Shown: piece by piece, positions 7,909 through 63,065 of the stretch
Layout: each line of letters begins with the position of its first letter
Position numbering within the stretch: the first letter of the stretch is position 1
Assembly: GCA_964433225.1 (NCBI GenBank)
Contig: CAYSQA010000001.1
Span: 55,598-119,597 of the forward strand
Length of the DNA stretch: 64,000 nucleotides
Direction of reading: 5' to 3'
Source of the DNA: an uncultured Pseudomonadales bacterium
GTDB lineage: Bacteria; Patescibacteriota; Microgenomatia; UBA1400; PJMF01
Notes under the pieces: model-generated
Told to the model about the DNA's origin: nothing
Databases searched by the model: none
What the model saw: the letters and a program-made list of their open reading frames with translations, nothing else
Made by a program: the position numbers and the translations under genes

Positions 7909-9000
7909 TTATTGAGAAAATAATTGCAAATACTTAGCAAAATCTTGAACAAACAAGTGAGGCTCTTTAGTGAACCACTGTCTCAACTCTTCAAGCTTTA
8001 ACCACTTAATCTTAGCGATTTCATTTTTATTAAAATTAATTTCACTATTCTCTACTGAACTTATAAACCACTGACAAAAAAATTGATTGTCTCCGGATAA
8101 AAACAACTTTGTCTTTTTCTCTAAAGCTAAGTTTTTTAAACCTAGTTCATTTTCAGCAGCCTTAACTATCGCCTGTTCATAAGTTTGGTCACTCTCCACA
8201 AAACTGGCAGCCGCTGGTCCCCATTTTCCTGGATCATTCTTTTTATGAAAAGCTCTTTGAGCTAACAATACTTCACCTGTTTGATTCTTTAACCACAAAC
8301 TTGAGACCCTAAAAATATCTTTTTCTGCTACTGCCTCTTTTAGTTTTTCGGCAACTACTTCATCCCGTTGGTTAACTACGGCATATTTCTTTTTGGTATC
8401 AACATCCAGAATAATATCTAGTTTTTCAGCAACAGCTTGAAAAATTTTCTCATGACCAACCACATTGGGATGTAAACCATCAGCAAAGTCTGTATCAGTC
8501 AAAATAGCTTGTAAATCAATAAAGGTAAAATTTTCTTTTTCACAAACTTCTTTTATTACCTGTGAGTACTGATTAAGATTCGCTTTATCGTAACTCTTTC
8601 CAGTCGTACTTTGAGGCAAAGGGTTAGTTATTTGGTCATCACCTTTGGCCAAACCAACAAAAATAATTCTAGAAGTATATTTTTGAGCTAAATCACTTAA
8701 TTTTTTTAAATTACTTTTAAAAACACTTGACGCTGTAATTGGCTGAGCTTTTGTTTTGATAAAAGCAGCATCATTAGTCCCAATCGCAAAAATAATCACT
8801 TCCGGTTTTCTGGCCTCAGCTTCATTAACAAAACGTTGGAGCAAATCTGTTGAAGTATTTTTATCTATCCCCAAATCATAAACAGAAAAAAACTCATCAC
8901 TGACCTTTTCTAAATGGTTACGCAGTAAATTTGCCCAACCAATTCTAAAAGGTAGTTTAGCTCCCCAGGTAATACTGTCACCAAAGATACAGATATTCAT
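7909..9000 (-). CDS. SGNH/GDSL hydrolase fused to a NUDIX hydrolase domain
   Basis: N-terminal ICIFGDSITWG and GTND/...DGLHPN blocks (SGNH). C-terminal Nudix-box-like (GPAAASFVESDQTYEQAIVKAAENELGL). Confidence 0.6.
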   Translation of the reverse strand: MNICIFGDSITWGAKLPFRIGWANLLRNHLEKVSDEFFSVYDLGIDKNTSTDLLQRFVNEAEARKPEVIIFAIGTNDAAFIKTKAQPITASSVFKSNLKKLSDLAQKYTSRIIFVGLAKGDDQITNPLPQSTTGKSYDKANLNQYSQVIKEVCEKENFTFIDLQAILTDTDFADGLHPNVVGHEKIFQAVAEKLDIILDVDTKKKYAVVNQRDEVVAEKLKEAVAEKDIFRVSSLWLKNQTGEVLLAQRAFHKKNDPGKWGPAAASFVESDQTYEQAIVKAAENELGLKNLALEKKTKLFLSGDNQFFCQWFISSVENSEINFNKNEIAKIKWLKLEELRQWFTKEPHLFVQDFAKYLQLFSQ

Positions 9001-9567: not shown

Positions 9568-10128
9568 TTAAATAAGTCTTTCTGCTTTTTTAATTAATCT
9601 CATCAAAGCATAATCTAGTTTATCACCTAATTCATATCCTTCTGAAAAACTAAGAAACTTTAAGTCTTGTGATTCATGTTCTTCTGGCTTGGGCAAGTTT
9701 TCTGCTTGGGTAAAAATCAAATAACGAAAATCCAGGTGCAGATGAGCTGGAACACCATTTTTCTCTGGAATAAGTTGTACTTCTATATCTATCGGAGTAT
9801 CTATATAAAACTCTAAATCAGTTAAACCACTTTCTTCCTCTGCCTCCTTCATTGCTACTTTCGCTAAATTAGTCTCCCCATCTGCGTGCCCACCAAACTG
9901 TAACCATTTATTGAGTTTTTTATGATTGTGTAAAAGTATTTTTTTGGTTTTTGGATTAACCACCAATGCCGAGCCAGTCAAATGAGCCTCTAAACAATCT
10001 CTAATAAAAATATTTTCATGCTTGGTTATCAACTCTTTAATTTTTTTAACGTCAGCTAATTCTCTAGAATCACTAGTTTCAAACCGATTCAATAATTCAA
10101 TTATTTTATTTCTTGGTTGGCTCAACAT
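9568..10128 (-). CDS. NUDIX hydrolase
   Basis: Canonical Nudix box GGHADGETNLAKVAMKEAEEESGL. Confidence 0.85.
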   Translation of the reverse strand: MLSQPRNKIIELLNRFETSDSRELADVKKIKELITKHENIFIRDCLEAHLTGSALVVNPKTKKILLHNHKKLNKWLQFGGHADGETNLAKVAMKEAEEESGLTDLEFYIDTPIDIEVQLIPEKNGVPAHLHLDFRYLIFTQAENLPKPEEHESQDLKFLSFSEGYELGDKLDYALMRLIKKAERLI

Positions 10129-13529: not shown

Positions 13530-14915
13530 GTGGCAAAACCCACTTCACAGCCAACTATCTTGATTTTAGGTTCTGGACCAACTGGCTTAGGTGCAGCTTA
13601 TAGACTCCAAGAGTTGGGTTATGAAAACTTTTTAGTTTTAGAAAAAAATAATTTTGTTGGTGGTTTGGCAACTTCATTTGTTGATGATAAAGGATTTACC
13701 TGGGATATTGGTGGCCATGTAGTTCACTCTCACTACCAATATTTTGACCAAGTTTTTGCTAAACATGTATTAAAAAAAGCTAACACGCTTCAACGTGAAG
13801 CTTGGGTCTGGTTGTACAACACTTTTGTTCCCTACCCCTTTCAATATAACCTTCACTATTTACCCAAAAAAATTCAAGAGGAATGTGTTGCAGAATTAAA
13901 AAAAATAAAAACTAAACACAAACCAAAAAACTTTCTGGAATGGATCAATCATAACTTTGGTCTAGGTATTGCCAAACACTTTATGATTCCTCAAAATCTT
14001 AAAACCTGGGGTTATGATCTAAAAACCATTAATGCCGATTGGGTTGGAGATCGCGTTGCTACTGTTGATCTAGCTAGAACTTTAAAAAATATTGCCAACA
14101 AAAAAGATGATGTTTCCTGGGGACCAAATAATGTTTTCCATTTCCCCAAAAAAGGAGGCACAAGTTACATCTGGCAACAAATTGCCAAAACTATTCCCAA
14201 AGCAAAAATTAAACTAGGCAAACAAGTTACTAAGGTAGACTACAAAGAAAAGGTAGTTACCACCCAAGATGGTAAAACTTATAACTATGATTTTTTGATC
14301 TCTTCATTACCTGTAACTAAACTTTTAGAAATTGCTGCTCACCCATTAACTAAAACAGCTAAAGATAATCTTTTTTCTTCAACTGTCCATATTGTTGGGC
14401 TTGGACTAAAAGGTAAAACACCTGAAAAGCTCAAAACAAAATGCTGGATGTACTTCCCTGAAAAAGATATTCCTTTTTTTAGAGCTACAGTTTTTTCCAA
14501 CTATTCAAAAAACAATGTGCCAAATTATAAAACTCAATGGTCACTAATGTGTGAAGTTGCTCAAACTCCTCAGACTGATTTTCAAAATCAGCAACAAGTA
14601 ATTACTGAAGTAGTTAAAGGAGCAATCAAAGCCAAACTGATCAAGAACCAACAACAAATCATTCACTCATGGAGCCACTCTGAACAGCTTGGCTATCCCA
14701 CCCCAACTATTTCTAGAAATAAAGTCATTGACAAAATCTTGAAAAATTTACTTAAGGAAAAAATCTACTCAAGAGGCAGGTTTGGGGCTTGGAAATATGA
14801 AGTTTCCAATATGGATCATACTTTTATGCAAGGCGTAGAAGCGGTTGATCATATTCTTTACCAAAAACCAGAAACCACAGTTTGGCAACCAAATAAAGTC
14901 AATCAAAAAAAATAG
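13530..14915 (+). CDS. FAD/NAD(P)-binding oxidoreductase (amine-oxidase / UDP-galactopyranose-mutase-like fold)
   Basis: GTG start. ILILGSGPTGLGAAYRL dinucleotide-binding motif. 461 aa. Adjacent to glycosyltransferase genes. Confidence 0.55.
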   Translation: MAKPTSQPTILILGSGPTGLGAAYRLQELGYENFLVLEKNNFVGGLATSFVDDKGFTWDIGGHVVHSHYQYFDQVFAKHVLKKANTLQREAWVWLYNTFVPYPFQYNLHYLPKKIQEECVAELKKIKTKHKPKNFLEWINHNFGLGIAKHFMIPQNLKTWGYDLKTINADWVGDRVATVDLARTLKNIANKKDDVSWGPNNVFHFPKKGGTSYIWQQIAKTIPKAKIKLGKQVTKVDYKEKVVTTQDGKTYNYDFLISSLPVTKLLEIAAHPLTKTAKDNLFSSTVHIVGLGLKGKTPEKLKTKCWMYFPEKDIPFFRATVFSNYSKNNVPNYKTQWSLMCEVAQTPQTDFQNQQQVITEVVKGAIKAKLIKNQQQIIHSWSHSEQLGYPTPTISRNKVIDKILKNLLKEKIYSRGRFGAWKYEVSNMDHTFMQGVEAVDHILYQKPETTVWQPNKVNQKK

Positions 14916-14919
14916 TTTT

Positions 14920-16029
14920 TCAAACTTGCAATGCTTGTTTGATTTCTGCCACTAACAACTCTTTTGAATTAAAATTGCTCGTTTTCATTTTTTGTAAACT
15001 CTTTTTATAAATAAGCAATAAACTAGGGTCTTCAATAAATTCTTCTAATCTTGCCCAAGCTTTTTCTAACTTGTTTTCAACCAAACCCAAGTGATAATTA
15101 ATTATTAGCTCTTGATTGCCTTTTTCTTGAGCTCCCCCATAGTTAATCGCCATAAAAGGCGTTAATGTCGCAGTGGCTTCAAACAAAGTATTTGGTCCTG
15201 ACTTACCAATCACTAAATCAGCAGCTTTCATATATCTATCCATTTCATCAGTAAAACCAAGTACTTTAAAGGTTAAGTTTTTGTTTTTAAGAAACGAACT
15301 TCTAAAACCATTAGCTACATCTTTCAAAAATTCATTACTACCACAAATCATTACTACTTGAAGTGGTTTTTTAATAGTCAAAAATTTAGGTAAAAATTGA
15401 GCTGGTCCAACATTTCCCAAAGATCCAGAGCTCAATAAAAATAAAGGTATATCTGAATTAAAACCCAATTCTTTTTTTAACTCACGTTGCTGGTAAGCCT
15501 GTTCAAAAGTAGGTTTGACAAACCACCCAACTACTTTAGTTTTAGCCTGTGGATATATTTGAACTATTTTTTCAGCCTGCCAACGATCAAAAACAAAGTT
15601 AACATCAGCCTGTGGTGAAGGATTCATCAAAATCATCGTTCTAGGATCAGTAATCAAGTTAATAAAATAGAAATTATATTTCTTTTTGAGCCTTTCAATT
15701 GCTGGATTAAGTAAATAAAAAGTTGAAATTACTACTTTTGGTTGGTATGTTTTGAGTTGTTTTTCCACCAAAGCTGCAAAAAACCAACCAGTTATAAATC
15801 TGGAAAATTCCAACACATATTTATTTGCTACAGGTTTGGATAACAATCTCATTAACCTAGGAGCATAACGATGTAGTGACACATGAAGACTAAAATCTGG
15901 AAAATACTTAAAAAGTTTAACAGTAAACTTGGTCTTGGTAGTGATTGTTTCTGCCACAACCCTGGCCAAAGACTCGTGACCTTGGCCAGTGGTAAAAATT
16001 AATATGTCAGTATTTTTCATCAAACTCAC
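14920..16029 (-). CDS. glycosyltransferase, GT28 / MGDG-synthase (UgtP/MurG-like) family
   Basis: N-terminal ILIFTTGQGHESLA and C-terminal GT-B nucleotide-sugar binding region (VIGKSGPNTLFEATA). Confidence 0.6.
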   Translation of the reverse strand: MSLMKNTDILIFTTGQGHESLARVVAETITTKTKFTVKLFKYFPDFSLHVSLHRYAPRLMRLLSKPVANKYVLEFSRFITGWFFAALVEKQLKTYQPKVVISTFYLLNPAIERLKKKYNFYFINLITDPRTMILMNPSPQADVNFVFDRWQAEKIVQIYPQAKTKVVGWFVKPTFEQAYQQRELKKELGFNSDIPLFLLSSGSLGNVGPAQFLPKFLTIKKPLQVVMICGSNEFLKDVANGFRSSFLKNKNLTFKVLGFTDEMDRYMKAADLVIGKSGPNTLFEATATLTPFMAINYGGAQEKGNQELIINYHLGLVENKLEKAWARLEEFIEDPSLLLIYKKSLQKMKTSNFNSKELLVAEIKQALQV

Positions 16030-16061: not shown

Positions 16062-17177
16062 ATGAGTTCAAAAACAACGCTAACAAAAACTAAAATCTTG
16101 GGCAAAGAATACCAGTTCCCGATTTATTTACCTGATGCCACTTTAGGCGTAGTCAGAGGTTTAGATAGTAAAACCGTTACCAAAACTGGAATTAAGGGCG
16201 TGGTTATTAACACTTATCACTTAATGACTAACCCCGGTACAGAAGTTTTGGACCAAGTTGGCGGCATTAAAAACTTTATGAATTGGTCTGGCTTAACTGC
16301 TTCTGATTCTGGTGGTTTTCAACTATTTTCTTTGATTCACAAAAACCCCAAACTAGGCAAAATTACTGACGATGGTGTCGTACTTTATACTGGTGAAAAA
16401 CAACAAAAAAAAACTTTGTTTACACCAGAAGATTCAATCCGAGTTCAATTCTCGATTCAAAGTGACATTATGATTTGCTTAGATGATTTTTCACCGATTG
16501 ATGCTTCAACGAAAAGACTCCGTGAAAGTGTTGATCGGACTGTTGCTTGGGCAAAGCGTTGTAAAGCAGAATTCACCAAACAATGCCAACAACATGGCTA
16601 TAATGATGAAAATAGACCATTACTACTTGGAGTGGTTCAAGGTCATAATAATCATAAATTGAGAAAAGAATGTGCTCAAAAATTAGAGGCTATTGGTCTT
16701 GATGGCTATGGTCTAGGTGGCTGGCCTTTTAAGACTGATGGCTCTTTTGACTATGACATGTGTCAAACCACTGCTGATGTCACACCCAACGACAAAATCA
16801 GATTTGCTTTGGGAATTGGTAGCCCAGAAAACATCGTGAAACTCTATCAAATGGGCTACAACATTTTCGACTGTGTCCTCCCTACCAGAGATGCTAGACA
16901 TCAAAGACTCTATGTTTTTACCAAAAATCCAGCAATAATCGACTTTGACCAAGCTGAAAATTGGTATGACTATTTGTACATTGGTCGTGGGTCGTTTAAG
17001 CAAGACACTAAGCCTATTGACCAGCACTGTGACTGTCATACTTGTCAAAACTACTCTAGATCATACTTAAACCACCTATTCAAAGTTAAGGACAACTTAG
17101 CGTTCTATTTGGCTACCATTCACAACCTTCGCTTTTATGCCAGATTGATGGAACTATTAAAAAACTTGTCAGTTTAG
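16062..17177 (+). CDS. tgt: queuine/preQ1 tRNA-ribosyltransferase
   Basis: TIM-barrel Tgt motifs (DSGGFQ) and C-terminal zinc site CDCHTCQNYSRSYLNHL. TATAAT hexamer ends 8 nt before the ATG, so possibly leaderless. Confidence 0.88.
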   Translation: MSSKTTLTKTKILGKEYQFPIYLPDATLGVVRGLDSKTVTKTGIKGVVINTYHLMTNPGTEVLDQVGGIKNFMNWSGLTASDSGGFQLFSLIHKNPKLGKITDDGVVLYTGEKQQKKTLFTPEDSIRVQFSIQSDIMICLDDFSPIDASTKRLRESVDRTVAWAKRCKAEFTKQCQQHGYNDENRPLLLGVVQGHNNHKLRKECAQKLEAIGLDGYGLGGWPFKTDGSFDYDMCQTTADVTPNDKIRFALGIGSPENIVKLYQMGYNIFDCVLPTRDARHQRLYVFTKNPAIIDFDQAENWYDYLYIGRGSFKQDTKPIDQHCDCHTCQNYSRSYLNHLFKVKDNLAFYLATIHNLRFYARLMELLKNLSV

Positions 17178-26195: not shown

Positions 26196-26771
26196 ATGAC
26201 AAAAAAACAAAATGGCCATAAAATTGCCAGAGATTACCAACTAGTTGCTGATTACGTCAAACAACAACGTCAAAGAAACAAAAAAATAGTTTTAACTCAA
26301 GGCTCTTTTGATATGCTCCATATTGGTCATGCTAGATACTGCAAAGAAGCCAAAAGCTATGGCAACATCTTGATTGTGGGGGTTGATAGTGACCAAAAAA
26401 TCAAAGCCAGAAAAGGCGAAGATCGACCGATTGTTCCTGAAGATGAAAGACTTGAAATGCTCACTTATCTAGCTTCGGTTGACTTAGTTGTTCTTAAAAA
26501 ACTCACCGCTCCCAAATGGGAATTAATTAAAATCATTAAACCAGACGTACTTATTGCTACCAAAGAAACCTACAAACCTGACCAGATTGCCAAACTAGAA
26601 AAAATTTGTGGCCAAGTAGTAATCTTAGATCCCATGGCAGTAACTTCTACCAGTGCCAAAATTAGATTGCTACAAATGGGTGCAGCCAAAAAAATCAAAT
26701 CTGTACTAACCAATAAATTAATTAACACTATTGAGGAGGTTCTCAGTGAACTCAAAGGCGAAAAAAAGTAG
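26196..26771 (+). CDS. small cytidylyltransferase-fold nucleotidyltransferase (RfaE-II / TagD / RibL-like)
   Basis: LTQGSFDMLHIGHARY (GxFDxxHxGH). 191 aa. Confidence 0.65.
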   Translation: MTKKQNGHKIARDYQLVADYVKQQRQRNKKIVLTQGSFDMLHIGHARYCKEAKSYGNILIVGVDSDQKIKARKGEDRPIVPEDERLEMLTYLASVDLVVLKKLTAPKWELIKIIKPDVLIATKETYKPDQIAKLEKICGQVVILDPMAVTSTSAKIRLLQMGAAKKIKSVLTNKLINTIEEVLSELKGEKK

Positions 26772-29251: not shown

Positions 29252-30007
29252 TCACAAACAATACGGCACTTCTTGTTTAAACTGCATAGCCTTGATTCGA
29301 TCAATAATTTTTTCGACTTTAACCTGATCAACTCCGGTAATTTCTTCGATCGTTTTATGTTGATCCAAATACTGAGTCATTACTAAATCGGCTTCTTGAT
29401 AGGAAAAACCAAGTTCAGTTTCATCTGTTTGCTGTGACCATAGACCAGCACTAGGAGCTTTGGTTAAAAAAACTGTTGGTAAACCAAATGTTTCAGCCAC
29501 TATTCTCACTTGAGTTTTGTATAAACTAGTAATTGGCTCGATGTCTGAAGCTCCATCACCAAACCGAGTAAAATAGCCTAAGTATTTCTCTGATTTGTTT
29601 TCCGTCCCACAAACTAAAGCATCGAGTTTTTTGGCTAAATCAAAAACTGCAATCATTCTTGTTCTGGCCATTACATTACCTAGACGAACTTGATCAGTAA
29701 TCTCAAGAGCCTGAGCAATTTGCTCAACAATTGGTTTAATCTGTACCGTAGTGAGATTTGTTTGTGGAATATCGTTCCAATAAATCACAGTCTGAGCATC
29801 AGTCATATCCTGATCTTGATAAGGCAGTAAAATTGGGAAAACATTTTCTGGCCCGATTGCTTTAACCACCAAAGATAAAGCCACAGCACTATCAATCCCA
29901 CCAGAAACAGCAATCACTGCTTTGGTTTTACCAGCCTTGGCAAAAGTCTCTCGTAGAGAGCTAGCTAAACGATCAATGATTTGAGAAGCGTTAAATTCTG
30001 ACATCAT
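29252..30007 (-). CDS. nadE: NH3-dependent NAD+ synthetase
   Basis: PP-loop AVSGGIDSAV. Start moved to the ATGATG that sits 7 nt downstream of a TATAAT hexamer (leaderless-like). Confidence 0.85.
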   Translation of the reverse strand: MMSEFNASQIIDRLASSLRETFAKAGKTKAVIAVSGGIDSAVALSLVVKAIGPENVFPILLPYQDQDMTDAQTVIYWNDIPQTNLTTVQIKPIVEQIAQALEITDQVRLGNVMARTRMIAVFDLAKKLDALVCGTENKSEKYLGYFTRFGDGASDIEPITSLYKTQVRIVAETFGLPTVFLTKAPSAGLWSQQTDETELGFSYQEADLVMTQYLDQHKTIEEITGVDQVKVEKIIDRIKAMQFKQEVPYCL

Positions 30008-30044
30008 AGAAAGTATTATAAACAAGATTTTTACCAACTTTTAA

Positions 30045-30362: not shown

Positions 30363-30941
30363 CTACCTATACAAATTGTTATTTTTAATATATTCAATAA
30401 TTTCGTCTTTAACCACAGCAGCAATATCTTCTCCATTAGCTATTTTTTGTCTAACTAAAGTCGAAGAAACCTCGATTTCTTGCATATCTGTCAAAGGAGT
30501 CATATTGTCATAAAGAGGTAAGAAAGAATAACCTTTCCTGGGATAAACATAAAAATGATACTTAGCTAACATTTGTTTAAAATCTCTCCCTTGGCTATCT
30601 CCCCAGAGGTGAAACTTGGCTAGGTTATCTGAACCAATTAACCAAGAAAACTCATGTTCTGGATGTTGTTGGGCTAGAGCATCTAGAGTTTCGTGAGAAT
30701 AACTAATCCCTTTTTTGGTGAGCTCATAAGTCTCGATTCTAGTTCTCTGGTCATCAGCTACCAAAAACTGTAACATCGCCAAACGATGATGATCAGCAGT
30801 AAGTTTTTTGGCAAAAGGGTGAGTTTTGGCTGGTACATACCAAACCTGGTCAGCGATACCTAAATCAAGAATGTTTTTAGTAATTGAATGATGACCTAAA
30901 TGGGGTGGATCAAAAGCTCCGCCAAAGAGAATTATTTTCAT
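30363..30941 (-). CDS. nadD: nicotinate-nucleotide adenylyltransferase
   Basis: ILFGGAFDPPHLGH (HxGH nucleotidyltransferase). SxT/ISYS motif. Confidence 0.88.
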   Translation of the reverse strand: MKIILFGGAFDPPHLGHHSITKNILDLGIADQVWYVPAKTHPFAKKLTADHHRLAMLQFLVADDQRTRIETYELTKKGISYSHETLDALAQQHPEHEFSWLIGSDNLAKFHLWGDSQGRDFKQMLAKYHFYVYPRKGYSFLPLYDNMTPLTDMQEIEVSSTLVRQKIANGEDIAAVVKDEIIEYIKNNNLYR

Positions 30942-47753: not shown

Positions 47754-47810
47754 CCATTCTGTATAAACAAAATACTGACAATAAATATAACAGAATCTAG
47801 GAAGTTAGTA

Positions 47811-48512
47811 CTACTCTGGTTTTAGAGCTAGGTACTTTTTCATTTCGGCCAAGTGTTTAATCACTATATGGTTGTTCATGATGCCCTCTAATTCTGGATC
47901 AACCAAAAAAGTTAAAAAGCCAAGCTCTGCTGCAACATCAGCTTCTCGCCAATTATTATCAACATAAACAGTTTCTTGTGGCTTAATGGCTAGTCTTTCA
48001 ACCATTTCTTCATAAGCTGCGCGCTGGGGCTTTCTGGCTTTTTTCATTTTATCTCCAGAAAGAATATTATTCTCTAATTCATAGGCCAACTCTCCAACAA
48101 CTGCTTCTAAGGCCTTAAAAACTCTATCCATGGCTGATGAAGAAAACAAATAAACAGGTACATGCTTCATTAACTCCTGGATAAAATCAGCTAACTGTTG
48201 GTCGAATTGTAAATATTCAGCCAAATTTACATCGTTAATAATGGCATCAAATTCTTCATCTTTTCCCCCATATTTTTTGAAAGTAACTCGCCAGCCATTA
48301 GCTAAAGCTTCATCTACAAAATCTTGTAATCTTCGGCCAAAGACCATGCCATTAACACTGGTTTTGCCTTCTGCTTCAAAGGTCTTTTGCACCAACCTTA
48401 GCCTGGCATCTTTCCAAACTTTTTTCTGAAATTCTTTGTTGGGAACGTAAAAAGTGCCATTAAAATCAAACACTGCCGCCGAAATATTTTTTCCGTCAAT
48501 CTCAATCGACAT
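47811..48512 (-). CDS. HAD-superfamily hydrolase
   Basis: Motif I FDFNGT (DxDx[T] variant with N). Motif III/IV region (K...DNNWREAD). Confidence 0.6.
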   Translation of the reverse strand: MSIEIDGKNISAAVFDFNGTFYVPNKEFQKKVWKDARLRLVQKTFEAEGKTSVNGMVFGRRLQDFVDEALANGWRVTFKKYGGKDEEFDAIINDVNLAEYLQFDQQLADFIQELMKHVPVYLFSSSAMDRVFKALEAVVGELAYELENNILSGDKMKKARKPQRAAYEEMVERLAIKPQETVYVDNNWREADVAAELGFLTFLVDPELEGIMNNHIVIKHLAEMKKYLALKPE

Positions 48513-48565
48513 TCAGAGAAATTATATCGACAAAAAAGGAAATTTCTATATCAAAACAAAAAAAT

Positions 48566-48739
48566 TTAGTTTTCACTAGTAACTTGCTTATCAGCCTCAC
48601 CTTTATAAATTAGATAAGCCGTAATAACTTCTGGTTTTAAAACTTGCAACCAATACCGTTGCCAATCCTTCCCTAGAATCGGTCTCGTTGAGTCAATAGC
48701 TGTAAAAATAGCTGTTCTGTCCGGTTTAGTTTCTGCCAT
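48566..48739 (-). CDS. small hypothetical protein (57 aa), below the 60-aa cutoff of the ORF track
   Basis: ATG preceded by AAGGAGG at -7. Translation MAETKPDRTAIFTAIDSTRPILGKDWQRYWLQVLKPEVITAYLIYKGEADKQVTSEN. Immediately upstream of the HAD hydrolase. Confidence 0.4.
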   Translation of the reverse strand: MAETKPDRTAIFTAIDSTRPILGKDWQRYWLQVLKPEVITAYLIYKGEADKQVTSEN

Positions 48740-48932
48740 AACTAACCTCCTTCAAAAGAATATTATAGCAAGAGAGATAAAACCAAGTTTGTTTTGTACA
48801 GTTTATGGAACAAATCCAGCCACGAGGATTTCACGACTCGCTACGCTCGCTGTATTACCCAGGTCTACTGCGTAGACTTGGCGGTGACCCACGCACTATC
48901 GTGCAGCTTTAAACCTAGTTCGACTCTGGCAA

Positions 48933-48958
48933 TAAAAAAATCCAACTTTAGTTGGATT
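48933..48958 (-). terminator. rho-independent terminator downstream of tRNA-Trp
   Basis: Minus strand AATCCAACTAAAGTTGGATT followed by TTTTTTTAT. Confidence 0.65.
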
Positions 48959-48967
48959 TATTCATTG

Positions 48968-49040
48968 CAGGGCCACGAGGATTTGAACCCCGGCGAAAGG
49001 TTTTGGAGACCTTCATGCTACCAGCTACATCATGGCCCTA
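48968..49040 (-). tRNA. tRNA-Trp (anticodon CCA)
   Basis: Manual fold: acceptor AGGGCCA/TGGCCCT; D-stem ATGT/GCAT; anticodon stem AAGGT/ACCTT with loop CUCCAAA; T-arm CGGGG-TTCAAAT-CCTCG; discriminator G. 3' CCA not encoded. Confidence 0.8.
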
Positions 49041-49137
49041 GCTAATAGAGACTTATTATAACTGAAAATCACTAAGATTAAGGAGAAATTTACTCTCACT
49101 CTTGCCTCAAAACCAAAAAACATCTAGGCTAATATAT

Positions 49138-54978: not shown

Positions 54979-55506
54979 GTGACAAATATTTCTAATTATA
55001 TTGTTGGAAAAAATAGAGACCAATATCTTGTTGGTAATGAATTAAATGGTGGGTTTTTATTACAAATGATTGAGTTTGCCCATACTGATCAACAGATTAT
55101 AGATCACACTTCTGATACTCAACGGTTTTCTTCTCTGGAAAACGCTCAAAAGTGGTTAAAAAAAGCTTCAAAATACTTTTTTACTCTTTCCCCTATTAAA
55201 AATCGAAATCATTTAGCCGGAATCATTTGGTTTGAAAACTTGGAGTTGCCCAAAATACTAAAAGATAAATATTCTACTAGTAATTGGACCTTTGGAATTA
55301 GAATTTATCAGTTTCACCGTGGCAATGGTTTGGCACTCCCATTTATGCAAACTGCTTTCAAAAAGTTCTTGCAACAATTTCCTCATCAACCAGTTTGGTT
55401 AAGCACTCAACTTAGCAATCAAACTGCTACAAATCTTTATCAAAAATTTGGTTTTAAAAAAATCGGTGAAGTTAACAATAAGGCTTACTTTTTATATGAA
55501 TCTTAA
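54979..55506 (+). CDS. GNAT-family N-acetyltransferase
   Basis: Motif A-like HRGNGLALPFM and C-terminal YQKFGFKKIGE. GTG start. Confidence 0.65.
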   Translation: MTNISNYIVGKNRDQYLVGNELNGGFLLQMIEFAHTDQQIIDHTSDTQRFSSLENAQKWLKKASKYFFTLSPIKNRNHLAGIIWFENLELPKILKDKYSTSNWTFGIRIYQFHRGNGLALPFMQTAFKKFLQQFPHQPVWLSTQLSNQTATNLYQKFGFKKIGEVNNKAYFLYES

Positions 55507-56412
55507 TTTAATAAAAATGCTCTTTATTTTTCTTAAAAAAATTTTCCTAATATTATTTTTAAAACTTAATTCTGGATCCTTATAGACTGTTTTATCTTTT
55601 ACTTTTGCCTTTTTAAATGAGTTTTTCCTTAAAATACAAGATAAACAATTACCACATTGAGTTTCTCCCCAAATAATACAACTTCTGGTTTTTTCTAGAG
55701 GAATTTTTTGTTCTGCTCCCCATTTAATCCATTCCCACTTCTTATGAAAAAAGCCCAACTCTTTTTCCAGTGGTAAAGAGCTAATTTGCCAACTTTCATC
55801 ACCAGTTAACTCTATGGCTGCCTTCATAAATAACCTTGTCGCTGTTAGTGTTTCATCTTTCATTACCAAGCCATCATCAGGCATAAATCCTGCTAGTATT
55901 TTTCTTACTTTTTTCTTTTTCTCTATTTCCAAAAAATAACCATACTGAACAGCATAAGAAAACAAAAGATTGGAGTACATAGGAATTCCTCTTTTTTGAC
56001 CATTTTTGCCAACTAAATCATCAGAAGCAATCGTGATTGGAAATCTGATGCTAAGCGGAGGAATTGAAGCATCAAGTTTAACTACATCTTTAGAAAAACC
56101 AGGATATTTTTTCTGGAAATACGTAGAAAAAAAGTCGACAGCTTTTTCTTCAAAAGCGACTCTTCTTTGGCCACGTCTTAAAAAAAGAGGGTAAACACAA
56201 GCCTTGTATTTAATTAACAAATAAGACCAAACCAAAACGCTATCCAAACCACCAGATACAATTAAAATAACTGGCTCATTGGGTGTGGGAGCTTTAAAAA
56301 CATAACCTCTATTAACTAATAAATATTCCTCTATTTCTTCAATGAGTTTTATATTTTCAAGCTTTCTAGCAACTAAAATCTTGCTAATTAGCTTTTTGCT
56401 TTTTTTATTCAT
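55492..56412 (-). CDS. QueC-family PP-loop ATPase (7-cyano-7-deazaguanine-synthase-like), orphan with N-terminal extension
   Basis: ILIVSGGLDSVL PP-loop. RRGQRR matches the QueC YGQRH block, and IPMYSNLLFSYAVQYGY matches the QueC VPGRNILFLTLAAIYAY block. C-terminal four-Cys zinc motif (RSC...QCGNCLSCILR), as in QueC. Confidence 0.7.
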   Translation of the reverse strand: MNKKSKKLISKILVARKLENIKLIEEIEEYLLVNRGYVFKAPTPNEPVILIVSGGLDSVLVWSYLLIKYKACVYPLFLRRGQRRVAFEEKAVDFFSTYFQKKYPGFSKDVVKLDASIPPLSIRFPITIASDDLVGKNGQKRGIPMYSNLLFSYAVQYGYFLEIEKKKKVRKILAGFMPDDGLVMKDETLTATRLFMKAAIELTGDESWQISSLPLEKELGFFHKKWEWIKWGAEQKIPLEKTRSCIIWGETQCGNCLSCILRKNSFKKAKVKDKTVYKDPELSFKNNIRKIFLRKIKSIFIKLRFI

Positions 56413-57038
56413 TTATATTTAAACTTTTTCAAGACTATTTGTTGCCACCAATCGTTCATATTTCTATTTACAATTGTTTTCCCAATTTTTTTGCCATATG
56501 TTGTTTTTAAAGAATTTTGAAAGTAATCTAACCAACCTGATGCCGCTTTAGTCCCGTTTTCTAGCAAGTTTTTATCAGTTAACATTTCATCCAAAATATC
56601 GGCCTCATGAACAATGATTGCTTCTTTTGTTTTTCCTTCTAAAAGTTCATTAAAAATAGCTAACCATTTATTTTTGAAAGAAAAATTACTCAATTGATCA
56701 TTTAAAGCTTTAGTTTCCTGATAATCTACATAACATTTATTGATTAAGTCTAAATCTCCAATTCTAGTTTCTGGCAAGTCATGAATAAGAGCCATTATTA
56801 ATAACTTACTTAAATCTATTTTTCTCTCTCTTTCGGCCAAAATCAACGAGATCATAGTTACTCTATAACTATGATCTGATATAGTTAGGTTATTATTTTT
56901 AACCTGACTTCTCTTAACTTTGCTTAGGTAAGCTATCTCAAATAAAAAATCTGTTAAATTGTTTAAAGATTTATTTTGTTTGGGCTCTTTAACCTTAAAA
57001 CTTTTTGAAAAAATTTTAAAAAAAAGATTCATTTTCAA
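56409..57038 (-). CDS. HD-domain 5'-(deoxy)nucleotidase, YfbR-like
   Basis: H (DHSYRVTMISL)...HD (ALIHDLPETRIGDLD)...D pattern, characteristic of YfbR-type HD nucleotidases. Confidence 0.65.
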   Translation of the reverse strand: MKMNLFFKIFSKSFKVKEPKQNKSLNNLTDFLFEIAYLSKVKRSQVKNNNLTISDHSYRVTMISLILAERERKIDLSKLLIMALIHDLPETRIGDLDLINKCYVDYQETKALNDQLSNFSFKNKWLAIFNELLEGKTKEAIIVHEADILDEMLTDKNLLENGTKAASGWLDYFQNSLKTTYGKKIGKTIVNRNMNDWWQQIVLKKFKYK

Positions 57039-57597
57039 TTTCCTCCAATTGATAGGGATTATATCTAATTAAGCTTTTAAAAGAATATCTATTTAAAAAA
57101 TCAAATTCATTCATACTTTGAAAGTTTTCTGGGAGTGAATTTAATATTACTGAAATTCCTTTTATTCTTCCCTTTTTTATACTTTCAATTATTTCAACCA
57201 CAGCTCTGATTTGTGATCCAGTCGCAATCCAATCATCAACCACTAAATAGTTATCTTTTTTGCTAAAAGCTAGAGGATCATTTTCTACCTCTAAGCTTTT
57301 TTTTGTTCCACTATAGTCTTTAAAGTCTTTTTTAATAACTTTAAACCTTGGTTTATAATCTATTTTTTCTATATTTCCACTTTTTCTAATCATCACTAAA
57401 CCACAATTAAGCTCTTTAGCAATGCCTCCTGCTAAAATAAAACCTCTAGATTCAATCCCAACAACTTTTGTGATTTTTTTATTTCTAAACTCATCTGCCA
57501 TTAATTTAATAATCATTGGAAAAACCTTTTTATCACTATATGGTAAATAAATTGACTGTTTATGAAGTTTTAGAAAAAGGTTAAGAATTTTATTCAT
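57016..57597 (-). CDS. type I phosphoribosyltransferase, adenine-PRTase-like
   Basis: PRPP-binding motif YLVVDDWIATGSQIRA. Hood region VVGIESRGFILAGGIAKELNCGLVMIRKSG resembles Apt. Confidence 0.7.
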   Translation of the reverse strand: MNKILNLFLKLHKQSIYLPYSDKKVFPMIIKLMADEFRNKKITKVVGIESRGFILAGGIAKELNCGLVMIRKSGNIEKIDYKPRFKVIKKDFKDYSGTKKSLEVENDPLAFSKKDNYLVVDDWIATGSQIRAVVEIIESIKKGRIKGISVILNSLPENFQSMNEFDFLNRYSFKSLIRYNPYQLEEIENESFF

Positions 57598-58306
57598 TTA
57601 AAATTTCCATGGCTAGTTTTGTGGCTTTTTTAATACTAATCTTTAAGTCTTTCTTATCACAAAAAACAACTTGTTGTTTGTTTTCTAGCCATTTATCAGA
57701 AACTACCAAAATACCCAAAGCTTTAAAACTCAACTTTTGTGAAAGAGCGTACAAACTACTCATTTCCATATCAATACCAATTACTCTTTTCTTTAACAAA
57801 AATCTAATATCACTTTTCAAGTCAGGATTATAAAAAGTATCAGTAGAAGAAGTAGTGCCGACAGCACTAAAAAAAAATTTATTTTTTACCAATTTGATCA
57901 TGTTGCTATCTATATATTTACATCCAAAAATGCCTCTAGCTAAGTATTTTAATCCCGTCCCATCTTTAATATAAACTCTATTAACTAATAAAATTTCTCC
58001 TAAATCTAACTTTGAAATCGAAAAACAAGTTCCGACTTTGATAACTTGTTTTACACCTAACTTCAAGAGTTCATGTATGACTATGGCAATAGAAGGGCCA
58101 CCCATACCAGTTGTTTGAACAAAATATTTTTTTCCTTGATAAAAACCAGAATAGGCCATTAAACCTCTAGATTCGTTTAGTTTTCTTACTCTTTTAAAAA
58201 AACTATCAGCTATAAACTTTGCCCTATTTGGATCACCAACCAAAATTCCTCTGGATGGATACTGACCTAAAGGGTCTAAATGAAAAACTTTAGTACTAAT
58301 AGCCAT
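57590..58306 (-). CDS. purine/uridine nucleoside phosphorylase (PNP/UDP family, DeoD/MTAP-like)
   Basis: GDPNRAKFIA, GMGGPSIAIVIHELLKLGVKQVIKVGTC, IDMEMSSLYA blocks. Confidence 0.75.
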   Translation of the reverse strand: MAISTKVFHLDPLGQYPSRGILVGDPNRAKFIADSFFKRVRKLNESRGLMAYSGFYQGKKYFVQTTGMGGPSIAIVIHELLKLGVKQVIKVGTCFSISKLDLGEILLVNRVYIKDGTGLKYLARGIFGCKYIDSNMIKLVKNKFFFSAVGTTSSTDTFYNPDLKSDIRFLLKKRVIGIDMEMSSLYALSQKLSFKALGILVVSDKWLENKQQVVFCDKKDLKISIKKATKLAMEILNE

Positions 58307-58308
58307 AA

Positions 58309-58812
58309 TTAAGTTTTCAAAATTTTTTCAATAATTTTAGTAGAGGAAAATATCTTTGGAGATTGGTCTTCGATCACTTTTAAACTAAACTTTCTTGATA
58401 AATCATTCTTTCTTTGTTTTGCTACTTCACCTAATTGATGAATAACCAAAAAATTTGGTGAAACCTTAGCGATAATGTTTACTAACATTTTATCTGCTTC
58501 ATCTGAATTAAATTTAACCACCTCTTTGATTGGAAAAATTACATCAATACTTTGTAGCTCACTCAATACATTAATTCTTTTTTCTAGACTAAAAATAGGT
58601 CTATCAAATCCCTTATTTGCTTTAACATTTTGATCATTATCAACTCCAACAACTAAATAGTCAGCTAAACTTTTAGCAAATCTGAAAAACTCAACATGAC
58701 CAATATGTAAAATGTCAAAACAACCAGTAACTAAAACAACTTTTTTATTAACCCAAATTTCATTACGAATTTTACTGATTTCTTCTAGAGTTTTTAACTT
58801 TGTTGTTTTCAT
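58309..58812 (-). CDS. small cytidylyltransferase-fold nucleotidyltransferase (paralogue of the 26196 gene)
   Basis: VVLVTGCFDILHIGHVEFF (GxFDxxHxGH). 167 aa. Confidence 0.65.
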   Translation of the reverse strand: MKTTKLKTLEEISKIRNEIWVNKKVVLVTGCFDILHIGHVEFFRFAKSLADYLVVGVDNDQNVKANKGFDRPIFSLEKRINVLSELQSIDVIFPIKEVVKFNSDEADKMLVNIIAKVSPNFLVIHQLGEVAKQRKNDLSRKFSLKVIEDQSPKIFSSTKIIEKILKT

Positions 58813-58886
58813 TTTAACCTACAAGTAGTTATTGATTATATATTTAAGTCATAAATTATCCATGTTTAGTTGTTAAAATAGATTAT

Positions 58887-61358: not shown

Positions 61359-63065
61359 ATGAATATTCTTGGAATTTCTTGTTATTACCATGATTCGGCA
61401 GCTTGCTTAATAACAGATGGATTAATCAAAGCGGCTGTTGCCGAAGAGAGATTCACTAGAAAAAAACATGATAATAGTTTCCCTTTTAAAGCTATTGACT
61501 ATTGCTTAAAAGAATTTAAAAAATCAATTAATGAGCTAGACGCTATAGTTTTTTATGAAAAACCCATTATTAAATTTGAAAGAATAATTCATCAACATTT
61601 AGAAAATTTTCCTAAAAGTCTTCCTGCTGCTATAGAATCAATTCCTCAATGGTTTGATCAAAAACTTAGAATAGAAAAAATTTTGAAAGAAAAACTAAAT
61701 TACTATGGAAAAATATATTACTCATCACACCACTTGTCTCACGCTGCTAGTGCTTACTATTTATCAGGATTTGAAAAATCTGTAATTTTAACCATTGATG
61801 GTGTCGGAGAATGGGCAACTACCACATTGGGAGTTGGCAAAAACAAAAATATTAAAATTGACCAAGAAATTAATTTTCCTCACTCTCTTGGCTTACTTTA
61901 TAGCACTCTTACTACTTATCTTGGTTTTTCTGCCAATGATGCTGAATATAAGGTAATGGGTTTGGCTGCTTATGGAAATCCAGATAAATACATGGATAAA
62001 TTTGATCAATTGATAACTCAATTTCCTGATGGTAGCTACCAGCTAAATCAAAAATATTTTGATTTTGATTGGTCCAATAAAAAAATGTACTCCAAAAAAC
62101 TTGTTAAGCTATTTGGTCATAAGCCTAGAAAACCAGAGAGTCATGCTTACAAGTATCACCAAGACATTGCTGCTTCACTGCAAAAAAAACTTGAAGAAAT
62201 AGTGATTAATCTGTTGAACCAAGCTTATAAAAAATACAAGTTACCGAATCTTTGTTTATCTGGTGGAGTTGCCTTAAATTCTGTCTTGAATGGAAAAATA
62301 CTTACATCAACTCCATTTAAAAGGTTGTATATCCCGCCTGATCCTGGAGATGCTGGTGGAGCCATGGGAGCAGCCCTTTATTTGGCCGCTCAAAAAGACA
62401 AACACCTCATTCAATGGAAAAAATTCACTCCATATTTGGGACCAGAATATGCTTGGTATGAGGTACAAAAAACCCTCAAAAAAATGAATATTGCTTACAC
62501 CTTTTATCCAAATAAGGACAAGTTGATTAAAAGTGTTGCAAAAAAACTAAAAAAGCAAAAAATCATTGGCTGGTTTCAAGGAAAAATGGAATGGGGCCCA
62601 AGGGCTCTAGGTAACAGAAGTATTTTGGCTTCTGCCACAAATATTAAGATGAGAGATATTATTAATAAAAAGGTTAAACACAGAGAGCTTTTCCGTCCTT
62701 TTGCCCCGGTAATCTTGGAAGACCACATTAATAAATACTTCGAAGCAGATCAAAACTTGCCTGTTTCTGCCAGATATATGCTCATGGTCTACCCTTTTAA
62801 AAATATTGGCTATAAACAAGTTCCTGCAGTTGTTCATGTTGATGGTAGTGGCAGGCTCCAAACTTTAACCAAAAAAGACAATCCCTGGTACTACTCTCTT
62901 ATTGAAGAATACGAAAAACTAACTCAAGTGCCGATTATCATTAATACTTCATTTAATGTACGCGGGGAACCAATAGTTTGTAGCCCCAAAGATGCTATAA
63001 ACTGCTTTTTACATACAGATATAGACTATTTGGTCATTGATCAATTTATTTGTAGAAAGAAATAG
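61359..63065 (+). CDS. carbamoyltransferase, NodU/CmcH (HypF-like) family
   Basis: N-terminal ILGISCYYHDSAACLI...ERFTRKKHD signature. 568 aa. Confidence 0.85.
   Translation: MNILGISCYYHDSAACLITDGLIKAAVAEERFTRKKHDNSFPFKAIDYCLKEFKKSINELDAIVFYEKPIIKFERIIHQHLENFPKSLPAAIESIPQWFDQKLRIEKILKEKLNYYGKIYYSSHHLSHAASAYYLSGFEKSVILTIDGVGEWATTTLGVGKNKNIKIDQEINFPHSLGLLYSTLTTYLGFSANDAEYKVMGLAAYGNPDKYMDKFDQLITQFPDGSYQLNQKYFDFDWSNKKMYSKKLVKLFGHKPRKPESHAYKYHQDIAASLQKKLEEIVINLLNQAYKKYKLPNLCLSGGVALNSVLNGKILTSTPFKRLYIPPDPGDAGGAMGAALYLAAQKDKHLIQWKKFTPYLGPEYAWYEVQKTLKKMNIAYTFYPNKDKLIKSVAKKLKKQKIIGWFQGKMEWGPRALGNRSILASATNIKMRDIINKKVKHRELFRPFAPVILEDHINKYFEADQNLPVSARYMLMVYPFKNIGYKQVPAVVHVDGSGRLQTLTKKDNPWYYSLIEEYEKLTQVPIIINTSFNVRGEPIVCSPKDAINCFLHTDIDYLVIDQFICRKK

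Follow-up and report, generated by a model that had tools for sequence, protein, structure and literature searches.

The making of queuosine precursors has lately been shown not to be the only task of QueC-family enzymes, as Cap9 and QatC link groups to proteins. To our knowledge, the first substrate of QatC is still unknown. A 2026 survey of the superfamily defined by the Pfam domain QueC (PF06508) distinguished ten clusters, namely QueC, QatC, LarE, a cluster 4 linked to purine salvage, WbpG, GMP synthase, Cap9 and three archaeal clusters (PMC13329287). In Escherichia coli QueC, alanine at Y35, R99, Y131 or Y189 abolishes queuosine (Q) synthesis in each case, and Y131F leaves partial activity (PMC13329287). 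The Y131/D133 pair, which corresponds to Y129/D131 in Bacillus subtilis and Y115/D117 in Cap9, recognises 7-carboxy-7-deazaguanine (CDG) by stacking on and hydrogen-bonding the 7-deazaguanine (PMC13279940). Here we characterise a QueC-like gene (55492..56412, minus strand), the last of a five-gene operon in a 64,000-nucleotide stretch of DNA from an uncultured bacterium (contig CAYSQA010000001.1, positions 55,598 to 119,597), which we call the window. We conclude that the encoded protein represents an undescribed branch of the QueC family (PF06508) in the ultra-small microbes of the candidate phyla radiation (CPR) and the DPANN archaea and that, judged by its sequence, it is not a canonical QueC and not a synthase of 7-cyano-7-deazaguanine (preQ0). 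The 2026 survey makes no mention of Patescibacteria, Saccharibacteria, decarboxylases or phosphorylases (PMC13329287), and our literature search on this clade, including links of the QueC family to PqqD and to ribosomally synthesised peptides that are modified after translation (RiPPs), returned nothing relevant.

The open reading frame (ORF) starts with ATG and its product has 306 amino acids (aa); the gene is supported by the ORF list, Pfam, homologues and an AlphaFold2 model. Pfam QueC matches residues 48-269 with 43.4 bits (cutoff 22, E 3.7e-11), and the envelope spans profile positions 2-209 of 210. This QueC-fold core (55606..56271, minus) was also recovered by Foldseek from the AlphaFold2 model, which was built with 25 homologues as input and has a mean pLDDT of 93.9 and a pTM of 0.88. 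The top matches in the PDB were QueC 2pg3 from Erwinia, Cap9 9nto_B (template modelling (TM) score 0.73 on target) and QueC 3bl5 from B. subtilis (TM 0.77 on target, root-mean-square deviation 3.9 Å), and the TM scores on target against QueC ranged from 0.68 to 0.77. More distant matches were the PP-loop enzymes TtuA, TilS, NcsA, YcfA and LarE. As an earlier note on this DNA had read from the letters, the 306-aa protein carries an SGGxDS PP-loop, the ATP pyrophosphatase motif S53-G-G-L-D-S58 (56239..56256, minus), which hhalign aligns to S9-S14 of E. coli QueC. The zinc site seen in the translation, C245-x7-C253-x2-C256-x2-C259 (55636..55680, minus), aligns to C188, C197, C200 and C203 of E. 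coli QueC. The note was right about the four cysteines and the two x2 spacings, but the first spacing is x7 and not x8, the spacing found in QueC.

With the Pfam threshold passed, a QueC-like fold, the SGGxDS motif and four zinc cysteines, the protein belongs to the PF06508 superfamily. It shares with QueC the Rossmann-like PP-loop fold, SGGxDS, a lysine at the K165 position and the C-terminal four-cysteine zinc site, and presumably also a chemistry in which a nitrogen nucleophile attacks once the substrate has been adenylated. Across 196 family sequences the PP-loop is nearly invariant, with G55 in all of them and few conservative swaps elsewhere (S/T, G/S, D/E or S/T/A/C). The four zinc cysteines and K225, the equivalent of E. 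coli K165, are essentially invariant in the same set. Because the PP-loop, this lysine and the cysteines are so well kept, the protein is very probably an active ATP pyrophosphatase.

Regarding size, QueC has ~220-231 aa, and the surplus of about 75 aa was correctly noticed before, together with the N-terminal extension. The internal insertions proposed at the same time turned out to be minor, as the sole internal insert is one of 6 aa at 160-165; the extra residues lie mostly at both ends, in a 45-aa N-terminal helix pair and a basic C-terminal helix of ~27 aa. The N-terminal extension (aa 1-45; 56278..56412, minus) contains two helices according to DSSP (6-15 and 21-35), and the hhalign alignment to E. 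coli QueC starts only at residue 48. Within the extension, E28, R35 and P42 are nearly invariant among the 196 family members. The C-terminal helix (aa 280-306; 55495..55575, minus; DSSP helix 280-305) has a net charge of +7. Family C-terminal tails have a median net charge of +5, and their hydrophobic moment (median z 1.2) is not clearly above shuffled controls. The helix may act as a membrane anchor, and nucleic-acid binding is equally possible. The N-terminal extension, a tail following the zinc site and the basic C-terminal segment are present family-wide and absent from QueC.

The NCBIfam equivalog model for QueC, TIGR00364, gives the protein 19.6 bits against a cutoff of 150.3. We aligned the 25-sequence family profile by hhalign to E. 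coli K-12 QueC, taken from the annotated genome (probability 96.7 %, E 4e-10), and found all four residues essential for Q synthesis replaced: Y35 by R80, R99 by Y146, Y131 by M184 and Y189 by I246. The same four columns were obtained from an independent MAFFT alignment of the 196 family members with E. coli QueC. There, Tyr and Phe are missing from the five commonest residues of every clade at the Y35 and Y131 columns, and at the Y131 column these five include no aromatic residue in any clade; Trp occurs at the Y35 column in 6 of the 133 sequences grouped as 'rest'. Y35 belongs to the YxQxHxxE motif of QueC. At the R99 column, part of the VPxRN motif, all 18 members of the clade that contains the window protein (window clade) have Tyr. 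From the YPDC motif, the Tyr and the Cys are lost and the Asp is kept (D133 as D186), and the Tyr189 that directly follows the first zinc cysteine of QueC has become I246. The blocks previously described as YGQRH-like and GRNILF-like were placed correctly (R80-G-Q-R-R84 and I143-P-M-Y-S-N148) but are positional remnants, in which the defining Y35 and R99 are replaced. Because the TIGR00364 score is far below the cutoff, the four essential residues are lost and the protein falls in a clade of its own with its own conserved neighbourhood, it is not a housekeeping QueC. The same observations support the suggestion of the earlier note that the substrate is likely something other than free CDG.

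We also considered a divergent but genuine 7-deazaguanine enzyme, which would convert salvaged CDG or 7-amido-7-deazaguanine (ADG) to preQ0, or make another derivative, for a tRNA-guanine transglycosylase (TGT) of the same genome, while the HD-domain phosphohydrolase and the nucleoside phosphorylase of the operon would free the base from scavenged nucleotides and nucleosides. A bacterial-type tgt gene indeed lies in the window at 16062-17177 (plus strand; Pfam TGT 307 bits, 4e-60 to solved bacterial TGTs), the equivalent of the CDG-binding D133 is kept in the window clade, and a nucleotidase together with a phosphorylase would make a plausible path from queuosine or other 7-deazapurine nucleotides to the free base. 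Moreover, a distant relative (locus L013) is situated 4 kb from a homologue of the archaeosine synthase QueF-Like and a YhhQ-family transporter. In that locus, the QueF-Like homologue (106 aa; PDB 5jyx, E 5e-5) and the Vut_1/YhhQ-family transporter that follows it (L013:3023-4071) come directly after the partner decarboxylase and are situated 4 kb upstream of the QueC-like gene. Members of the Vut_1/YhhQ family are preQ0/preQ1 importers, and a preQ0 importer argues for salvage over synthesis there. The replacement of all four residues needed for preQ0, including the Tyr that stacks on CDG, stands against such an enzyme (PMC13329287, PMC13279940), as does the TIGR00364 score.

The genetic context points the same way. 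Pfam detected no QueD, QueE, QueF, FolE, QueA or YhhQ domain in the 64 kb; of the 62 ORFs with 110 aa or more, the scan covered 59, all but three small ones. The label of an orphan QueC homologue therefore holds as far as preQ0-pathway domains are concerned, but not for the queuosine machinery as a whole, as the tgt gene is present in the window. For the relatives, we fetched 31 loci (383 kb), called and clustered their ORFs and based counts on 18 non-redundant loci. No queD or queE is listed beside the homologues where Pfam tables exist, with only few ORFs scanned in L007-L009 and L015-L021. No TGT match was found in the 383 kb of family loci, and a physical linkage of the family to TGT was accordingly rejected. 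The constant partners of the family, a decarboxylase and a methyltransferase, play no part in preQ0 synthesis. Taken together, we regard a genuine 7-deazaguanine enzyme as highly improbable. As a separate observation on the window TGT, the pocket that in solved bacterial TGT holds the 7-substituent is altered, with C145 replaced by F and G-G-L-A-V-G-E by G-G-W-P-F-K-T (HMMER confidence is low there), so that this TGT may have an unusual base specificity.

When the family profile was compared with solved structures, Cap9 was the best match (2.6e-12), followed by QueC 3bl5 (3.9e-5) and QatC (1.5e-4). Cap9, the QueC-family ligase of the type IV cyclic oligonucleotide-based antiphage signalling system (CBASS; PDB 9NTO), has two parts in common with the window protein, namely the PP-loop and the stretch that surrounds the zinc site, and it shows that the QueC fold is able to take an amine other than ammonia as nucleophile. 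It is, however, minimal (~185 aa) and keeps the CDG-recognising Y-x-D-C, whereas the window protein has 306 aa and lacks the aromatic residue. QatC of the QatABCD defence system (PDB 9VLK, 9ZEE) resembles the window protein in having a QueC core without the Tyr of the Tyr/Asp pair and additions at both termini; it has Thr at both positions of the pair, whereas the window protein keeps the Asp. The two also share the tail CGxCxxCxxR[KR]...D-x-T-x-Y (QatC 352-376, window protein 253-277). In our protein this post-zinc tail, R262...F266...D273-x-T275-x-Y277 (55582..55629, minus), is a feature common to QatC and not QueC and aligns with QatC 349-382 (CGRCVPCLIRR...DDTIY). R262 is Arg in 195 of 196 family members and Y277 is Tyr in 193 of 196; the Tyr in the tail is conserved in QatC as well (PMC13329287), and Y277 is its match. 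Otherwise QatC is different (~400-465 aa, C-x19-C spacing, other extensions), and only the tail can be aligned: the QatC model NF041925 gives 29.6 bits against a cutoff of 280, over aa 250-283.

Such likenesses raise the question of a peptide or protein ligase in the manner of Cap9, QatC or a lasso cyclase, which would activate an acid and pass it on to a protein or ribosomal peptide, at the N-terminus or on a side chain, or would activate a peptide carboxylate, in defence signalling or RiPP maturation. Cap9 as the closest solved relative of the profile and the QatC-like tail with Y277 speak for it. So do fused forms in the family. About one third of the top 150 family representatives are long (405-435 aa), and of the 10 long forms scanned, 7 have at the C-terminus a PqqD domain, the peptide-binding RiPP recognition element (RRE). 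A neighbour-joining tree sets the long forms, with a few short forms interspersed, apart from the window clade. Their loci look RiPP-like, with separate PqqD genes, ScmC (PF27840), S24-like peptidases, NTP_transf_5 and small upstream ORFs, and in L030 only with YcaO and nitroreductase. A literature search on ScmC turned up nothing of relevance. Some short forms adjoin genes for B12-dependent radical S-adenosylmethionine (SAM) enzymes, whose best model match is a RiPP C-methyltransferase. PqqD-fused forms were seen in P0138, P0118, P0120, P0128, P0117 and P0172 and at L028:10001-11224 and L030:7421-8566, and this clade could be an undescribed RiPP class.

For the window protein itself, a ligase of this kind is very unlikely. 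The protein has no RRE domain and belongs to a clade separate from the fused forms; at the R99 position the fused clade retains the Arg, and the window clade has Tyr. The surroundings of the window gene lack conserved small ORFs, partners with an N-terminal glycine and genes for QatA, QatB, QatD or a CD-NTase, and PADLOC gave no system-level match. Beside it, Pfam and PADLOC found no CD-NTase or Cap10, and qatA (KAP NTPase), qatB and qatD (TatD nuclease) are missing from its neighbours, which are the HD, phosphoribosyltransferase, phosphorylase, nucleotidyltransferase and GNAT genes. No relatives were found in viral contigs. Anti-phage defence was thus rejected, as the PADLOC matches are weak and generic, Qat and CBASS partners are lacking and viral contigs hold no relatives; these results, with the NF041925 score, give no support to the defence or regulatory role of the QatC or Cap9 type that the earlier note had offered as one option.

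Two further groups of the superfamily deserve comparison. Cluster 4 consists of proteobacterial QueC-like proteins of unknown function encoded beside PfkB-nucleoside 2-deoxyribosyltransferase genes (PMC13329287). It resembles our family as a QueC-family paralogue tied tightly to purine and nucleoside salvage enzymes and not to queD/queE. Its proteins are, however, shorter than QueC and proteobacterial, with the motifs CH(x)5CxxCxGCxK and YGQ(x)6E, whereas the window protein has neither motif and is 75 aa longer than QueC. To GMP synthase (cluster 6) the family profile aligns over the PP-loop region only (aa 45-103, E 3e-4). GMP synthase has specific motifs and a dimerisation domain that binds xanthosine monophosphate, and it lacks the zinc site that the window protein possesses.

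A word-indexed search recovered 48 relatives of ~280-360 aa with 31-89 % identity and E values down to 1e-100, all labelled PF06508. The profile search of 1.84 billion cluster representatives returned 265 at E <= 1e-30 and 2317 at E <= 1e-10, so the family comprises at least 265 members counted as cluster representatives at 50 % identity. The two genome records with close relatives are metagenome-assembled genomes of Candidatus Saccharibacteria, one distant member comes from a Candidatus Nanoarchaeia archaeon, and the others are on metagenome contigs. Residues of the putative pocket differ between clades. At the D133 column, Asp is kept specifically by the window clade (16 of 18 members), whose R99 column is Tyr; in the fused clade, 41 of 45 members retain the R99 equivalent, and the D133 column is Glu; the other short forms are variable at both. 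Since the pocket varies in this way, the chemistry is shared by the family, but the substrate is probably not the same throughout. Within the window clade, the loop R79-R80-G-Q-R83-R84 is conserved, with R80 and R84 invariant and R83 nearly so, and is suited to a phosphorylated ligand. Two loci encode the protein twice. L010 has diverged paralogues less than 6 kb apart (8001-8900 and 14325-15131, minus), with 54 % (P0016) and 36 % identity to the window protein, and L018 also carries two copies.

In the window, the QueC-like gene closes an operon of five minus-strand genes running from 58812 to 55492, in which a 2-nt gap is followed by overlaps of 8, 23 and 4 nt. The first gene (58309..58812, minus) encodes a cytidylyl- or adenylyltransferase-like protein of 167 aa (Pfam CTP_transf_like 64 bits; NCBIfam rfaE_dom_II 91 bits, below cutoff). 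Its nearest PDB match is ethanolamine-phosphate cytidylyltransferase (ECT) 3elb (E 1.4e-20), followed by the uncharacterised 5x9q ('putative cytidylyltransferase'), an RfaE-like protein, TagD and CCT. The second (57590..58306, minus; 238 aa) is a hexameric DeoD-type nucleoside phosphorylase (Pfam PNP_UDP_1 79 bits; NCBIfam DeoD-type 126 bits, cutoff 230), matching DeoD purine nucleoside phosphorylases (PNPs) at E 1e-29 and the Sulfolobus methylthioadenosine phosphorylase 1jds at E 9e-25. The third (57016..57597, minus; 193 aa) is a type I phosphoribosyltransferase (PRTase; Pfam Pribosyltran) resembling adenine phosphoribosyltransferase (APRT): its scores on the NCBIfam APRT models (70-81 bits) stay below the cutoffs, and the best PDB matches are all APRT (E 1e-13). 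The fourth (56409..57038, minus; 209 aa) is a YfbR-like HD-domain phosphohydrolase (Pfam HD_3 69 bits), which among PDB entries comes nearest to the 'oxetanocin-like protein' 1xx7 (E 9e-11) and whose stop overlaps the QueC-like start by 4 nt. The PRTase, phosphorylase and HD neighbours had been recognised before, and the CTP_transf_like gene can now be added to them.

A promoter-like sequence, TGGATA-16-TATAAT (58835..58862, minus; 10/12 matches in the consensus scan), lies 23 nt upstream of the first operon gene. Promoter-like sites in the operon region are not above shuffled controls, so this site fits a single transcript without proving it. The terminator scan flagged an inverted repeat with a 13-bp stem, AGATCATAGTTAT-AGA-GTAACTATGATCT, within the HD coding sequence (56849-56877, minus). 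The operon and the GNAT gene convergent to it form a low-GC block (54979..58812) in per-gene GC, GC at third codon positions (GC3) and sliding-window analysis, with 26-31 % GC (GC3 16-24 %) against 36-41 % GC in the flanking genes. This low GC suggests an accessory or acquired module, possibly of horizontal origin.

The arrangement PNP-(PRTase)-HD-(CTP_transf)-QueC-like recurs, whole or partial and rearranged, in Saccharibacteria-type loci L006, L007, L008, L010, L015 and L016. The commonest neighbour across the family is a pyridoxal 5'-phosphate (PLP) dependent amino-acid decarboxylase, found in 13 of the 18 loci up to ~8 kb away and usually adjacent; Methyltransf_24 is present in 9, an ABC_tran or ABC-2-type transporter in 10 and a B12-binding radical SAM gene in 4. 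The decarboxylase comes in two unrelated folds, group II (nearest to histidine decarboxylase/MfnA models) and group IV (nearest to LysA and the N-citrylornithine decarboxylase FslC), and this non-homologous replacement is strong evidence for a functional link with the QueC-like protein. Several loci unite the nucleoside-enzyme and the decarboxylase kinds of neighbourhood: the gene orders are decarboxylase-PNP-PRTase-HD-QueC-like-B12 radical SAM in L008, decarboxylase-CTP_transf-QueC-like-HD in L016 and PNP-HD-CTP_transf-QueC-like-Methyltransf_24-decarboxylase in L010, where the second paralogue and an adjoining Nuc_deoxyrib_tr gene accompany the cluster. In L007 a group IV decarboxylase gene lies directly downstream of the QueC-like gene on the opposite strand, convergent to it. 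Phosphoesterases beside the QueC-like gene are HD in Saccharibacteria, Metallophos in L011 and L017 and Exo_endo_phos in L022, and a MazG-like gene lies 7 nt upstream of it in L026. Two fusions were noticed: P0097 (481 aa) joins the QueC-like protein to a Ham1/ITPase non-canonical NTP pyrophosphatase, and P0069 (447 aa) joins it to an S24/S26-type peptidase. Outside Saccharibacteria, the gene is found mainly among glycosyltransferase, Wzy_C, DegT/GFO and ABC-2 transporter genes.

Our preferred reading, held tentatively and at a little less than an even chance, is that the window protein is an adenylating ligase which, at the expense of ATP, couples an acid linked to a nucleoside or nucleotide with ammonia or an amine. 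ATP would be bound at SGGLDS. By analogy with the family chemistry, an oxygen of the first substrate, a carboxylate or a lactam carbonyl, would be adenylated, and a nitrogen nucleophile would then displace AMP to give an amide or amidine. In the Saccharibacteria clade the first substrate would most likely be a purine-type base, nucleoside, nucleotide or nucleotide-activated acid, supplied, activated or recycled by the four co-transcribed enzymes, that is the phosphorylase, the APRT-like PRTase, the HD phosphohydrolase and the ECT/TagD-like nucleotidyltransferase. The nucleophile would most likely be ammonia or an amine from the PLP amino-acid decarboxylase that accompanies the family elsewhere, and the product would probably be exported or used in the envelope or in secondary metabolism.

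A nucleotide-linked acid is favoured for several reasons. The three nearest operon partners are purine enzymes by homology, and family members are found linked or fused to nucleotide hydrolases of three unrelated kinds (HD, MazG-like, Ham1). The window clade specifically keeps the Asp by which QueC and Cap9 read the Watson-Crick edge, and its R79-R84 loop is fit for a phosphorylated ligand. In addition, another QueC paralogue is tied to purine-salvage genes (PMC13329287, cluster 4). The nucleoside- or nucleotide-linked carboxylate that the earlier note had given as an example is compatible with the operon partners, the Ham1 fusion and the MazG-like neighbour.

Several points weigh against this reading. 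Nothing in the evidence presented here points to the identity of the acid. PNP, APRT and HD could be housekeeping purine-salvage enzymes of an organism without de novo synthesis, kept as neighbours by lineage-specific synteny, and the Saccharibacteria loci are non-independent observations. No nucleoside enzymes were found near the family members outside Saccharibacteria, where the pattern fits a glycopolymer substrate as well or better. The amine part is extrapolated from relatives, as tblastn and Pfam found no PLP decarboxylase, Methyltransf_24 or ABC-2 transporter in the window. Finally, given the variable pocket, one function may not hold for the whole family.

The glycosylation-rich context of the non-Saccharibacteria loci leads to the alternative of a glycopolymer amidoligase. 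The carboxylate of a sugar acid, borne either by a growing polymer (wall, teichoic-like or capsular) or by the lipid- or nucleotide-linked precursor of such a polymer, would be adenylated and amidated with a phospho-amine, for instance ethanolamine phosphate from the partner decarboxylase, and a phosphatase would then strip the phosphate. The PRTase and HD proteins would add ribose-5-phosphate from phosphoribosyl pyrophosphate (PRPP) and trim it, ribose phosphate would come from the phosphorylase, and a CDP-activated head group from the ECT/TagD-like enzyme. A precedent is the HS:2 capsule of Campylobacter jejuni, where the Ser-P decarboxylase Cj1436, the ATP-dependent amidoligase Cj1438C and the phosphatase Cj1435 act together with Cj1432, which performs PRPP-dependent ribosyl-phosphate transfer followed by dephosphorylation (PMC12409886, PMC12096443). 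This glucuronamide module co-encodes the same set of activities (an amine-making decarboxylase, an enzyme that forms amides with ATP, a phosphatase and a transferase that uses PRPP), the analogy drawn here being one of pathway logic by described activities.

The neighbourhoods offer further support, as outside Saccharibacteria the gene lies beside ABC2_membrane/ABC_tran pairs, Wzy_C, GT1, GT2 and GT4 glycosyltransferases, DegT with GFO_IDH_MocA, and Glyphos_transf. The run 2-Hacid_dh, aminotransferase, Metallophos, Methyltransf_24 and Pyridoxal_deC in L011 resembles a route from phosphoserine to phosphoethanolamine, phosphoesterases of several folds (HD, Metallophos, Exo_endo_phos) are adjacent to family members, and the operon nucleotidyltransferase is nearest to ECT and TagD. 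Surface-polysaccharide loci are also typically low-GC islands. However, CPR genomes are rich in glycan genes, which makes adjacency weak evidence, and the three nearest partners, by homology purine enzymes (DeoD-type PNP, APRT, 5'-nucleotidase-like HD), would have to be reassigned. The MazG-like neighbour and the Ham1 fusion do not suit a glycan substrate. Within 8 kb of the window gene there is no glycosyltransferase, ABC-2 transporter or decarboxylase, and the nearest Wzy_C lies 14 kb away. The sugar amidotransferase WbpG does belong to the wider PF06508 superfamily (PMC13329287), but the WbpG/WbuX-type NCBIfam model (cluster 5) is absent among the matches at E <= 0.01, where only the QatC and TIGR00364 models appeared. 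WbpG-type proteins also have the motifs in reversed order (SGGxDSxY and CxxC(x)6CxC), whereas the cysteine motif of the window protein is C-terminal, as in QueC. A glycopolymer amidoligase is the strongest rival to the preferred reading, but in our judgement rather unlikely.

If the preferred reading of a ligase for nucleotide-linked acids is extended to the whole family, the QueC scaffold might have been re-used independently a third time, after Cap9 and QatC, as a conjugating enzyme that places nucleobase- or nucleotide-type acids onto amines. These would be free amino-acid-derived amines in the decarboxylase-linked clade, which includes the window gene, and ribosomal peptides in the PqqD/RRE-fused clade. 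We consider this broader proposal unlikely as it stands; if true, CPR bacteria and DPANN archaea would contain metabolites, peptides or surface polymers with nucleobase tags of a kind not known before.

The rest of the window is a housekeeping region of a small genome, with genes for ribosomal proteins L11 and L1, NusG, tRNAs, MreBC, PBP2 and TopA, and with a nucleotide-metabolism block of ThyA, dihydrofolate reductase, dUTPase, Tmk and dCMP deaminase. CTP_transf_like genes occur three times, at 26196-26771 in the nucleotide-metabolism block, at 30363-30941 by NadE (probably NadD) and at 58309-58812 in the operon. We also tried to explain the operon as a surrogate NAD salvage route of the Preiss-Handler type, composed of the PRTase, a NadD-like transferase and a PP-loop amidase. 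This was dropped because the window already contains a canonical NadE (29252-30037, 217 bits), which adjoins the NadD-like gene at 30363-30941.

Tblastn of the window with Methyltransf_24, Pyridoxal_deC, ABC, GH39, Wzy, QueF-like and Vut_1 queries recovered only a carbamoyltransferase and the QueC-like gene itself. The carbamoyltransferase, of the NodU/CmcH type (568 aa; 61359-63065, plus), lies 5 kb from the QueC-like gene, and a 55 %-identical copy (L013:12878-14581) lies ~4.6 kb from the relative in L013; this could be a coincidence or a further shared partner. Elsewhere in the window we noticed a fusion of a GDSL lipase/acylhydrolase with NUDIX (363 aa; 7909-9000, minus) and a second NUDIX protein at 9568-10128. 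A contig of the same species with an identical QueC-like protein carries a serine recombinase, a DnaD-like gene and small ORFs by the DUF6938 gene (L001:9344-12601), and the matching place in the window (~47800-49100) has tRNA-Trp and a HAD hydrolase instead. This suggests an integrative element at the DUF6938 site that differs between samples.

The named relatives of the window protein are labelled 7-cyano-7-deazaguanine synthase. On proteins of this kind the label is very probably wrong, and it would inflate predictions of queuosine synthesis in CPR genomes. With this family, the versatility lately recognised in the QueC scaffold reaches CPR and DPANN organisms, in which its partners are decarboxylases or, by fusion, RiPP recognition domains. 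The family might hint at the kind of acid that is activated by QatC-like enzymes, and a knowledge of its chemistry could bring to light a new metabolite, a new envelope decoration or a new RiPP class in organisms with very few biosynthetic genes.

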